IMG/VR virus record: IMGVR_UViG_3300030099_005086 | Location: 46,740-110,739 of that record | Source of the DNA: a virus | Length of the DNA: 64,000 bases | Reading direction: 5' to 3' (one strand) | Position numbers and translations under genes: made by a program | The notes under the pieces: model-generated | The model's database searches: none | What the model was told of the DNA's origin: nothing | The model's input: only the letters and a program-made list of their open reading frames with translations | Shown: in pieces, positions 29,845 to 50,085 of the stretch | Layout: every line of letters starts with the position of its first letter | Position numbering within the stretch: the first letter of the stretch is position 1

Positions 29845-29875
29845 TTTTATATTGGTTTATAAATTAATAATTAAT

Positions 29876-29910
29876 AAAAGAATAGTGGGAGGGTTTCCCC
29901 TCCCCCATTC
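29876..29910 (-). terminator. Intrinsic terminator after the major capsid gene
   Basis: Minus strand GGGAGGG-GAAA-CCCTCCC (GNRA loop) followed by ACTATTCTTTT. Confidence 0.8.
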
Positions 29911-29925
29911 AACAAAAAAGATATA

Positions 29926-47472: not shown

Positions 47473-47760
47473 ATGTTGTACTTTGTAAAATTTACCCAAA
47501 CAGGTAAAGGTATGGTCTTTTCAAGTGAAAAGATAGGTGAAAAAATAACCAAGACAGTAGGTACTGGTGACAATGCTGTAAGTATTACTATTAGTAAACA
47601 AACGCCAAATGTCAAATTTGGGTTTTGTCCAACTAATGGTAAAACAGCAGAGCTCAAGAAAGTATTAAAACCAGGTCAACAAGTTGATGGTTTTAAACTG
47701 TCTGATGAGAAGGTAGAGATTGAAGGTGTGCCATCTGACAATCTCTTCTGGGTAGAGTAA
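47473..47760 (+). CDS. First gene of the plus arm, hypothetical small beta-rich protein
   Basis: A-rich leader; followed by a terminator. Confidence 0.7.
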   Translation: MLYFVKFTQTGKGMVFSSEKIGEKITKTVGTGDNAVSITISKQTPNVKFGFCPTNGKTAELKKVLKPGQQVDGFKLSDEKVEIEGVPSDNLFWVE

Positions 47761-47767
47761 TACTCTA

Positions 47768-47800
47768 AGGTGTGTATGTAACAATGCACACCTAATTTTT
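47768..47800 (+). terminator. Intrinsic terminator
   Basis: AGGTGTGTAT-GTAACA-ATGCACACCT followed by AATTTTT. Confidence 0.65.
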
Positions 47801-48009: not shown

Positions 48010-48210
48010 ATGACTAGCATTCAAAAAGAATTAAAAAAGGCTCAATTAAATAATGATTGGAACAGCATCAAAAGAATATTTGATAAGCTAAATAACATCT
48101 GTAAAGAAGAAGCAGACATGAGTTTATTTGAGTTCTTAACGTATAGAGATAATACTTCAGAACTTTGTAGATATTATTCTTTAGGTCCACATAAATCTAA
48201 AATGACATGA
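48010..48210 (+). CDS. Hypothetical early protein
   Basis: ORF with an ATGA overlap to the next gene. Confidence 0.55.
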   Translation: MTSIQKELKKAQLNNDWNSIKRIFDKLNNICKEEADMSLFEFLTYRDNTSELCRYYSLGPHKSKMT

Positions 48211-48383
48211 AAATAGTAAACATAGAAAGAACATATAACAAGTATGAAGATAAGTATGAGATTGTTATGTGGGTAAAAGATAAAATAAACTATTGTACAA
48301 CACCTATAGTAGTTGAGGATACTGCATATGCAAATAGCCTTTTAAACTCTTGGAATAGTGTTAATAGTAACTCTGAAGAATAG
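48207..48383 (+). CDS. Hypothetical early protein, 58 aa; missing from the ORF track
   Basis: MKIVNIERTYNKYEDKYEIVMWVKDKINYCTTPIVVEDTAYANSLLNSWNSVNSNSEE; ATGA overlap with the previous gene. Confidence 0.6.
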   Translation: MKIVNIERTYNKYEDKYEIVMWVKDKINYCTTPIVVEDTAYANSLLNSWNSVNSNSEE

Positions 48384-48387
48384 TATT

Positions 48388-48780
48388 ATGAAAGCAAAAA
48401 TAGAATTTATACGTGCACAAGCTAATGTTACATATGAAGCATTGCTTACACTCATGAACACTTTCAATAGTGCAATAGATGAGGAGAGAGATAAAATCAA
48501 ACATTACTTTAATATTAATAGAGATATAGAAGGTAATGATGCTGCTCTACAAGCATTAAATATTTATAATGGAGATATGGTAGATTTACTTGACCTTATA
48601 AGAGGTATTAAGTATGATGCCCAGTTCTTCTATGGTGAGATTGATAAACCTGAATGCACCGCAACAGGTGAGAGATATAATATTAGTCACTTTGAGTACA
48701 TGAATGAGAAGCTTGACTGGATATATAATAATACATTGAAACATTATATTAATTTTCTAACAGAGGAAAAAAGATCATGA
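48388..48780 (+). CDS. Hypothetical early protein (start moved from 48358 to ATG 48388)
   Basis: ATG lies 4 nt after the upstream stop; ATGA overlap downstream. Confidence 0.65.
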   Translation: MKAKIEFIRAQANVTYEALLTLMNTFNSAIDEERDKIKHYFNINRDIEGNDAALQALNIYNGDMVDLLDLIRGIKYDAQFFYGEIDKPECTATGERYNISHFEYMNEKLDWIYNNTLKHYINFLTEEKRS

Positions 48781-49073
48781 GTAAAATAACAAAAATGTAT
48801 GGTGTCTATTTAGATATAGAAGACCAAGAAGTTACAAGTATGGTTATAGCAGCTGTTACAGCATACTTAAAAAGTCAAAAGACTTTATATAAAATAGACT
48901 ATCAGAAAGGTGATGTCTGTAAAGTTAAAAGAGTAGTGTATATAATGGAAAATAATACTAATCTTTGTAAATCAGTTTCTAAAAATTTGCAGGTTATATT
49001 TCCACAGTTAGAAATTGTAGTAGATGATATTGTATTACACTCAGAACTAGAGGAGGGTAATCATGTTATTTGA
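48777..49073 (+). CDS. Hypothetical early protein
   Basis: Coupled ORF. Confidence 0.6.
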   Translation: MSKITKMYGVYLDIEDQEVTSMVIAAVTAYLKSQKTLYKIDYQKGDVCKVKRVVYIMENNTNLCKSVSKNLQVIFPQLEIVVDDIVLHSELEEGNHVI

Positions 49074-49236
49074 GGAAGCACAAGATGCTTGGGATTTATA
49101 TAGTATAAGTCCTGAGCTAACATGTGCGTGTGATGAAGTACATACATGTCAACAATGTTATGAAGAATGGCAAGAAGAAAAGAAACTTATACTTCAAAAA
49201 CTTGAAGATGCTTTAAAAGAAAGCAAAGATGAATAA
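49063..49236 (+). CDS. Small Cys/His-containing protein, 57 aa; missing from the ORF track
   Basis: MLFEEAQDAWDLYSISPELTCACDEVHTCQQCYEEWQEEKKLILQKLEDALKESKDE; CxC-x3-H-x-CxxC. Confidence 0.65.
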   Translation: MLFEEAQDAWDLYSISPELTCACDEVHTCQQCYEEWQEEKKLILQKLEDALKESKDE

Positions 49237-49242
49237 TACAAG

Positions 49243-49272
49243 TGTATTCCTAAGCAAGAAGATAAACTGCTT
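49243..49272 (+). ncRNA. Candidate small H-type pseudoknot
   Basis: TTC(49247-49)/GAA(49258-60) stem; loop AAGCA(49252-56) is complementary to TGCTT(49268-72) after an AAAC linker. Confidence 0.5.
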
Positions 49273-49322
49273 TACTAATGTAGCCAAGGACGGTCACAAG
49301 CCCGTGTAAATACAGAGTGGTA
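49273..49322 (+). ncRNA. Twister ribozyme (type P1)
   Basis: TAC-TAA-TGTA-GCC-AAGG-ACGG-TCACAAGC-CCGT-GTAAA-TACA-GAG-TG-GTA. P1 TAC/GTA, P2 TGTA/TACA, P4 ACGG/CCGT; conserved UAA, GC, U...AAGC loop and GAG; pseudoknot CA/TG. Predicted cleavage between 49276 and 49277. Confidence 0.9.
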
Positions 49323-49352
49323 TAACAATGTTTAATTAAATTCAAAAGTCAA

Positions 49353-49484
49353 ATGGCAAAAAACGTAGGATTTCAGTATAGAGCTGAAGGTAAAAGAAAA
49401 AGAAAAGGTATACACTCTAAGAACAAGAGTAGAACCAAAGGTGGAAAACAGTATAAGAAACGTTATAACGGACAAGGTAGGTAA
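49353..49484 (+). CDS. Small very basic peptide ending Y.GQGR, 43 aa; missing from the ORF track
   Basis: MAKNVGFQYRAEGKRKRKGIHSKNKSRTKGGKQYKKRYNGQGR. A-rich leader; its stop is 1 nt before the next ATG. Resembles the KxYRGQG peptides common in aquatic phages. Confidence 0.8.
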   Translation: MAKNVGFQYRAEGKRKRKGIHSKNKSRTKGGKQYKKRYNGQGR

Positions 49485-49485
49485 G

Positions 49486-50085
49486 ATGAAAACAATATTA
49501 AAATCAAAGAAGAAAAGTTATAAAGATACTGAGTATACAGTATTACAAGATAACAATGAAATTGTATTCTCTAGAAATTTTGTTGGAGGTGCATGGTCAA
49601 TTGACACTCTTAACTTAAATACCAAGCTTGTTAAGCAAAGAACTGCTATAGATTATGTAAATACTAAATATCTTGAACAAAGATTCAAAGATATAAATGA
49701 TTTAATTGAAGCAGATGAGTATTATTCTGCTAAGATTAAGAGATTACATGGAGATCATAACTTGAGTTATAGTTATAATTTAAGTATTGTAGTGCCTAAT
49801 GTAGGATCAGGTATAAAAACCAAAGTTGATGTTTGGGATAATGGTCTAATGTTTGTAAGCATGGACAATAATTCTGATGAAGTTAGAACTAGTTGGGACT
49901 GTGTAACTGATATTAAAACTACAAGATCTATAGGTAAAGACTTTAGATTTAAGTTAAAGCACCTAAATCTTGATTGGATTAGATATGCAATACAAGAAAG
50001 AGCTTTGTATATTGATGAAGGAACTACTGATATATGTATTCCTTGGCAATATGTGAATCCTGTAGAGCTGCTTGAAGCAGAATAA
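49486..50085 (+). CDS. Hypothetical early protein (start moved from GTG 49441 to ATG 49486)
   Basis: In-frame ATG directly after the stop of the basic peptide. Confidence 0.65.
   Translation: MKTILKSKKKSYKDTEYTVLQDNNEIVFSRNFVGGAWSIDTLNLNTKLVKQRTAIDYVNTKYLEQRFKDINDLIEADEYYSAKIKRLHGDHNLSYSYNLSIVVPNVGSGIKTKVDVWDNGLMFVSMDNNSDEVRTSWDCVTDIKTTRSIGKDFRFKLKHLNLDWIRYAIQERALYIDEGTTDICIPWQYVNPVELLEAE

Follow-up and report, generated by a model that had tools for sequence, protein, structure and literature searches.

A gap of 116 nt, running from the stop codon of a 57-aa ORF (49236) to the next ATG (49353), interrupts a tightly packed run of small phage genes, and raises the question of whether this gap carries a self-cleaving ribozyme, as a first-pass annotation had proposed, and what such an RNA would do for the genes on either side of it. 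The window (the whole stretch of 64,000 nucleotides that was analysed) comprises bases 46740-110739 of a complete virus record of 110,739 bp with direct terminal repeats. Its - strand genes, up to 47260, code for a portal, a large terminase (TerL), a capsid protein and several giant virion proteins, and its + strand genes, from 47473, are first small ORFs without known families and then a replication initiator, a helicase and others. This is a Crassvirales-like context, with a Crass-type major capsid protein (94.1 bits against Pfam Crass_capsid, cut-off 27), a terminase and a portal (both with PHROG matches), and one arm that carries large virion proteins. It is a distant relationship: the best matches of TerL, aligned over about 88% of its length, are Crassvirales proteins with 25-26% identity. 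The DNA runs containing the stretch carry a marine label, and two such runs contain relatives at 90-99% identity. Because of the capsid match, the TerL identity of about 26% to Crassvirales and the marine-labelled runs, the phage may fairly be described as a distant, marine crAss-like lineage, in agreement with its earlier designation as a crAss-like phage; the label "early region" given to the ribozyme locus is plausible, being based on position. A BLAST search of the 3-kb region against GenBank phages gave no match, and no twister was found in four reference Crassvirales (crAss001, Cellulophaga phi14:2, cr1_1 and cr50_1) by a search that recovers positives.

The element (49273-49322, + strand) has the architecture of a type-P1 twister without P3, an assignment based on alignment to Rfam, on a covariance model of our own and on covariation in 27 homologues. 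P1 consists of three contiguous pairs (UAC, 49273-75, with GUA, 49320-22) and is followed by the cleavage loop UAA (49276-78), in which alignment to the Rfam consensus UAA predicts the cleavage site between U49276 and A49277. P2 is fully paired (UGUA, 49279-82, with UACA, 49311-14), and P4 is formed by ACG(G) (49290-93) and (C)CGU (49302-05), of which ACG (49290-92) and CGU (49303-05) pair fully. The loop L4, GUCACAAGCC (49293-49302), contains AAGC and takes part in both pseudoknots: T1, where CAC (49295-97) pairs with GUG (49317-19) of L1, and T2, where GC (49300-01) pairs with GC (49283-84) of L2. A 5-nt linker, CAAGG (49285-89), replaces P3, and GAG (49315-17) provides the conserved guanine at the base of P2, G49315. 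All the conserved core nucleotides are present, including this guanine and the scissile U49276-A49277 dinucleotide, whose roles have been described for the class (PMC6154101), and the sole departure from the consensus within the core is a compensated change from C-G to A-U in T1. The twister consensus elements listed in the first-pass annotation proved correct in every detail.

The Rfam twister-P1 covariance model (RF03160), the check suggested for this claim, aligns end to end with 49272-49323 (model positions 1-68 of 68) and gives a significant match of 53.7 bits, with an E-value of 1.6e-11 locally and of 3.3e-9 for the whole window against 4227 families; it is the sole ribozyme match in the 110.7-kb genome. 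A search of the window with a degenerate pattern of the 42-nt core gave a single match, and 100 shuffled sequences gave none, even when three mismatches were tolerated. An origin of the element as a chance match was also considered and is ruled out by the covariance-model E-value and the shuffle test. Two points against the assignment are minor: the nested-fold energy is no lower than that of shuffled sequence (z +0.41 for the element and +0.82 for the whole gap), a measure that is uninformative for a pseudoknotted RNA of 50 nt, and, in the minimum-free-energy fold, GAG and the U of the cleavage site would be sequestered in an alternative helix (UUACU/AGUGG). Judged by its alignment and its pairings, 49273-49322 is confirmed as a genuine type-P1 twister, predicted to adopt the minimal, P3-less form, in which P1, P2 and P4 are combined with T1 and T2. 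In the rest of the genome, Rfam detected no other ribozyme or structured RNA above threshold, and the weak sub-threshold matches were to c4-2 (E 0.3), an L20 leader (E 0.73) and a snoRNA (E 0.045). The first of these, to the c4-2 antisense RNA (29848-29918, - strand, 26.7 bits), falls in the gap just downstream of the stop codon of the - strand capsid gene and is probably due to chance.

The element is reported as nothing by a default Rfam scan, in which 53.7 bits are set against a gathering cut-off of 67.2 bits, an operational threshold that corresponds to no structural feature. The score is low because the P3 hairpin, which accounts for 16 model positions, is deleted, and the miss therefore does not count against the element. 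Scans of five further phage twisters without P3 gave 55.8-60 bits, all under 67.2, so that the miss is a threshold artefact of the whole subclass. [quoted passage not shown] With its curated cut-off, Rfam twister-P1 thus fails systematically to report twisters without P3, a form common in phage contigs.

The comparison with other viral twisters is based on 84 stretches of IMG/VR viral contigs that match the core pattern exactly, from which 55 unique copies were parsed; 29 of these 55 carry the same linker of 5-6 nt in place of P3. The middle pair of T1 is A-U in 46 copies, U-A in five, C-G in three and G-C in one, with no mispairs, and this covariation test is unbiased because the 3' partner (position 51) lies outside the search pattern. 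P1 was left wholly unconstrained by the core-pattern search, and in a gapless alignment of 27 P3-less copies each of its five inner pairs is represented by 5-6 pair types, 85.7% of the cells being paired overall, against 73% in shuffled alignments and 22-50% when the partners are slid. P2 shows three pair types at two positions in the 27 homologues, with the reservation that the parser had required P2 to be paired. A covariance model built from the 27 P3-less viral twisters, the window's own sequence included, scores the window element at 79.2 bits. With three contiguous pairs, its P1 is at the short end of the range and is not unusual (exactly three are found in 15 of the 55 copies), and P1 has been reported as dispensable for cleavage (PMC6154101). 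Among GenBank phages, BLAST with the 56-nt element retrieved only three records, which correspond to Clostridium phage c-st (two records) and one faecal phage. A separate, large group, comprising L002, L006, L007 and about 25 further loci on contigs of 60-125 kb from one metagenome, bears a twister with P3, which a Shine-Dalgarno sequence follows at a distance of about 20 nt; in one subgroup P1 pairing is not evident in the expected register, and megablast of this contig family returned a tRNA match alone.

The element is placed between genes in the manner of most viral twisters, which lie 10-40 nt after a stop codon and about 20-45 nt ahead of a start codon: here, the ribozyme begins 39 nt after the TAA (49234-49236) of the 57-aa ORF (49063-49236, + strand), and the next ATG comes 30 nt past its end. 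Between the ribozyme and this start codon there is an A/U-rich leader of 29 nt (49324-49352), predicted by folding to be unpaired. The first cistron after the cut (49353-49484, + strand) codes for a highly basic peptide of 43 aa with the core KRKGIHSKNKSRTKGG.QY, and is followed, 1 nt past its stop codon, by a 199-aa ORF (49486-50085, + strand) of no known family, for which no relatives were found in viral contigs. The genes at 48010-49236 abut or overlap, as do those from 49353 onward, and a simple consensus scan of the + strand found no terminator-like site between 47794 and 51600, which bears out the intergenic setting, in a tightly packed run of small ORFs, that had been claimed for the ribozyme. 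Co-transcription across the gap is inferred from this packing. Candidate promoters around the gap, in a simple scan, are no more numerous than in shuffled sequence. A terminator-like hairpin of 10 bp with a T-run (47768-47793, + strand) lies directly 3' of a 95-aa ORF (47473-47760). It is the only such hairpin nearby on the + strand and is located upstream of the gene run that contains the ribozyme, suggesting that the first + strand gene is transcribed as a separate unit, after which the unit with the ribozyme begins.

Upstream of the ribozyme, where a pseudoknot had been described, there are instead two weak tandem A/U-rich hairpins (49235-49272, + strand), formed by AAUAC/GUAUU (49235-48) and by AAGCA/UGCUU (49252-72, with an 11-nt loop), whose energy of -3.8 kcal/mol (z -0.05) is no better than that of shuffled sequence. 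The second of them directly abuts P1, in the position of the optional P0 hairpin, and is marginal in the window phage; the hairpin adjoining P1 is strong in many other viral twisters.

The first-pass annotation had also suggested that pseudoknot, ribozyme and basic peptide gene form a compact expression cassette, a proposal that finds no support in the comparison. The peptide is one of a tightly conserved family whose members have 42-44 aa and the invariant core given above. This family comprises 56 protein clusters at 55-98% identity, matches 274 stretches of IMG/VR viral contigs and includes many marine metagenome proteins, and it has no match in Pfam, PHROG or (by profile search) PDB. A twister was found within 3 kb of the peptide gene at 0 of the 80 other viral loci fetched, whether with the covariance model or with a loose pattern that recovers the positive controls, and the genes downstream of the 55 viral twisters are heterogeneous. 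The three parts adjoin in the window phage, yet they appear, from these comparisons, to form no conserved unit. Of 20 loci inspected, most show the peptide gene abutting or overlapping the gene upstream of it. At three loci (L157, L159 and L164), a GC-rich hairpin with A-runs on either side precedes the peptide gene by about 60-100 nt. With a hairpin ahead of the gene in a few phages and direct abutment in most, the upstream boundary is therefore variable. In the seawater metatranscriptome run X20, a single contig of 158 nt covers the peptide gene (49343-49487, depth 3.8) and leaves the ribozyme uncovered.

We consider it likely that the element is a functional type-P1 twister which cuts its own transcript at U49276/A49277 and in this way separates the upstream and downstream halves of the message. 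The twister itself is supported directly by sequence, predicted structure and comparison, and we infer cleavage in vivo and any effect on expression. As RNA polymerase transcribes through the gap, the RNA would fold and cut itself between U49276 and A49277, with no protein needed. The upstream RNA, carrying the genes at 48010-49236, would be left ending in ...UGCUUUACU with a 2',3'-cyclic phosphate on U49276, and the downstream RNA would start with a 5'-OH on A49277, followed by the compact ribozyme fold, the unstructured leader and the genes for the 43-aa and 199-aa proteins; these end groups are those described for twister cleavage in the literature on the class (PMC6154101, PMC8782182). The cut would act as an intercistronic processing site or insulator and, because it would split the message, the stability and translation of the two halves would no longer be interdependent.

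That phage ribozymes act by cleaving their own polycistronic RNA is the standard hypothesis (PMC3088659, PMC6765202). It was put forward in 2011 for hammerheads that flank phage genes, which were proposed to be RNA processors that release shorter mRNAs, with polycistronic RNAs of about 2 kb being cleaved in vitro and the 5' end of a halovirus early transcript mapping to a hammerhead site (PMC3088659), and a processing role was later proposed for twisters too (PMC6765202). The hammerheads of prophages, phages and haloviruses resemble the window element in being self-cleaving RNAs that lie, in a long transcript, between small phage genes or in front of them; they differ from it in class and fold, and also in that in vitro or in vivo cleavage data exist for them, whereas the window element is known from its sequence (PMC3088659).

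It had been further proposed that the 5'-OH end would protect the downstream mRNA, a suggestion that we regard as uncertain and one for which the glmS ribozyme, by analogy, would point the opposite way. In glmS, the one well-understood bacterial case, cleavage is followed by degradation by cellular RNases (PMC6765202), and this precedent favours an alternative in which the ribozyme is active and the cut mainly marks the RNA for decay, limiting expression of the downstream (or upstream) gene. The upstream product would fit such a role in having no convincing protective 3' hairpin, unlike that of many other viral twisters. However, the twister fold would stay on the 5' end of the downstream RNA, an end that has been described as buried in structure (PMC8782182), and the consistent presence of start codons 20-45 nt downstream suggests that the downstream gene is meant to be expressed. 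We think it rather unlikely that decay is the main outcome of the cut.

A further explanation is that the twister is a passenger module, spread by recombination, that does no harm, is retained for that reason and serves no specific function in the operon. Several observations speak for it. Contig G001, which is complete (117,753 bp), has a capsid protein 78% identical to that of the window phage and syntenic homologues of six of its + strand genes, among them a homologue of the 57-aa ORF (on L044; 74% identity over 35 aligned residues), and it carries exactly one twister (L044:4997-5078, - strand), at a different junction of the same gene module: this twister precedes a 76-aa ORF, itself ahead of the homologue of the 57-aa ORF, and none was found in G001 after that homologue. 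The L044 twister has a P1 of 6 bp, and the hairpin abutting P1 has a folding energy of -8.6 kcal/mol (z -2.75). The 45-nt core of the window element is also present, identical, in two unrelated contigs (L023 and L048), and in marine DNA runs this core occurs within other flanks at 3-10 times the depth of neighbouring sequence, from which it follows that several co-occurring phages share it. Closer relatives found in these runs have the twister and the genes that follow it in common with the window phage, and lose homology upstream of 49244, about 30 nt before the twister; in addition, there is normally no gap between the peptide gene and the gene preceding it. On the other hand, all catalytic and structural positions are preserved, with covariation among the copies, exactly one copy is kept in each of the six genomes checked (five other twister-bearing contigs examined in full, together with the window's own), and the placement is consistently just upstream of a start codon, all of which points to selection for function and makes a role-free passenger improbable.

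That the twister would be a mobile intergenic module, moving among marine phage genomes, is a separate and tentative idea, which would account for the single copy per genome, the non-orthologous junctions even between close relatives, the 45-nt core shared with unrelated phages of the same waters, the break in homology and the insertion of the element ahead of a peptide gene that is elsewhere fused to the gene before it; on this evidence we regard it as possible, although unlikely. If that were so, phages would be using small ribozymes as exchangeable "punctuation marks", traded to rewire how their operons are expressed.

Finally, the alternative offered in the first-pass annotation, that cleavage is gated by the upstream hairpins or by a bound factor competing with a weak P1, could draw on the shortness of P1, on the 3' arm of the second hairpin (UGCUU, 49268-72) that directly abuts it and on the alternative helix able to sequester the cleavage site, but it is very improbable, since the hairpins are no more stable than shuffled sequence, P1 is reported to be dispensable for catalysis (PMC6154101) and Rfam found no ligand-binding or protein-binding motif.

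A functional twister that splits the message, the reading that we prefer, has close counterparts among known systems. Type-P1 twisters (RF03160, clan CL00120; the class of Roth et al. 2014, according to PMC6154101) have the same P1-UAA-P2-P4-T1/T2 order as the window element and share with it the conserved nucleotides GC, GGUC.CAAGCCCG, GUAAA and GAG, the closest form being O. sativa Osa-1-4 (PDB 4OJI), which is likewise minimal and P3-less. The window element differs from them in its P1 of three contiguous pairs, in the A-U rather than C-G middle pair of T1, in its score below the Rfam cut-off and in its host, a marine Crassvirales-like phage, its cleavage being predicted from sequence. The P3-less twisters from uncultured IMG/VR phages (among them L023, L048, L044, L008 and L011) have an identical or near-identical core of 42-45 nt, CNNNG linker included, and are, like the window element, single-copy, intergenic and just upstream of a start codon; most of them, unlike it, have a stronger P0-like hairpin abutting P1 and a P1 of 4-6 bp, and their downstream genes are unrelated to the 43-aa peptide. 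RiboJ-type synthetic insulators, which are engineered from hammerheads and placed in the 5' UTR, are cut in such a way that the upstream context is stripped off and a structured 5'-OH end remains before the coding region, and their likeness to the window twister is one of analogy only.

Twisters are an established class, as are their occurrence in phages and the hypothesis of RNA processing, and the present case is an ordinary one, since phages with this arrangement have been described before; only the marine crAss-like setting and the systematic miss by the Rfam cut-off are mildly new. The finding leaves the knowledge of ribozymes unchanged. It adds a clean twister, predicted to be probably active, to a marine lineage related to crAss-like phages, and its single-copy site, between two defined gene blocks, offers a simple place in which the purpose of phage self-cleaving RNAs may be tested.
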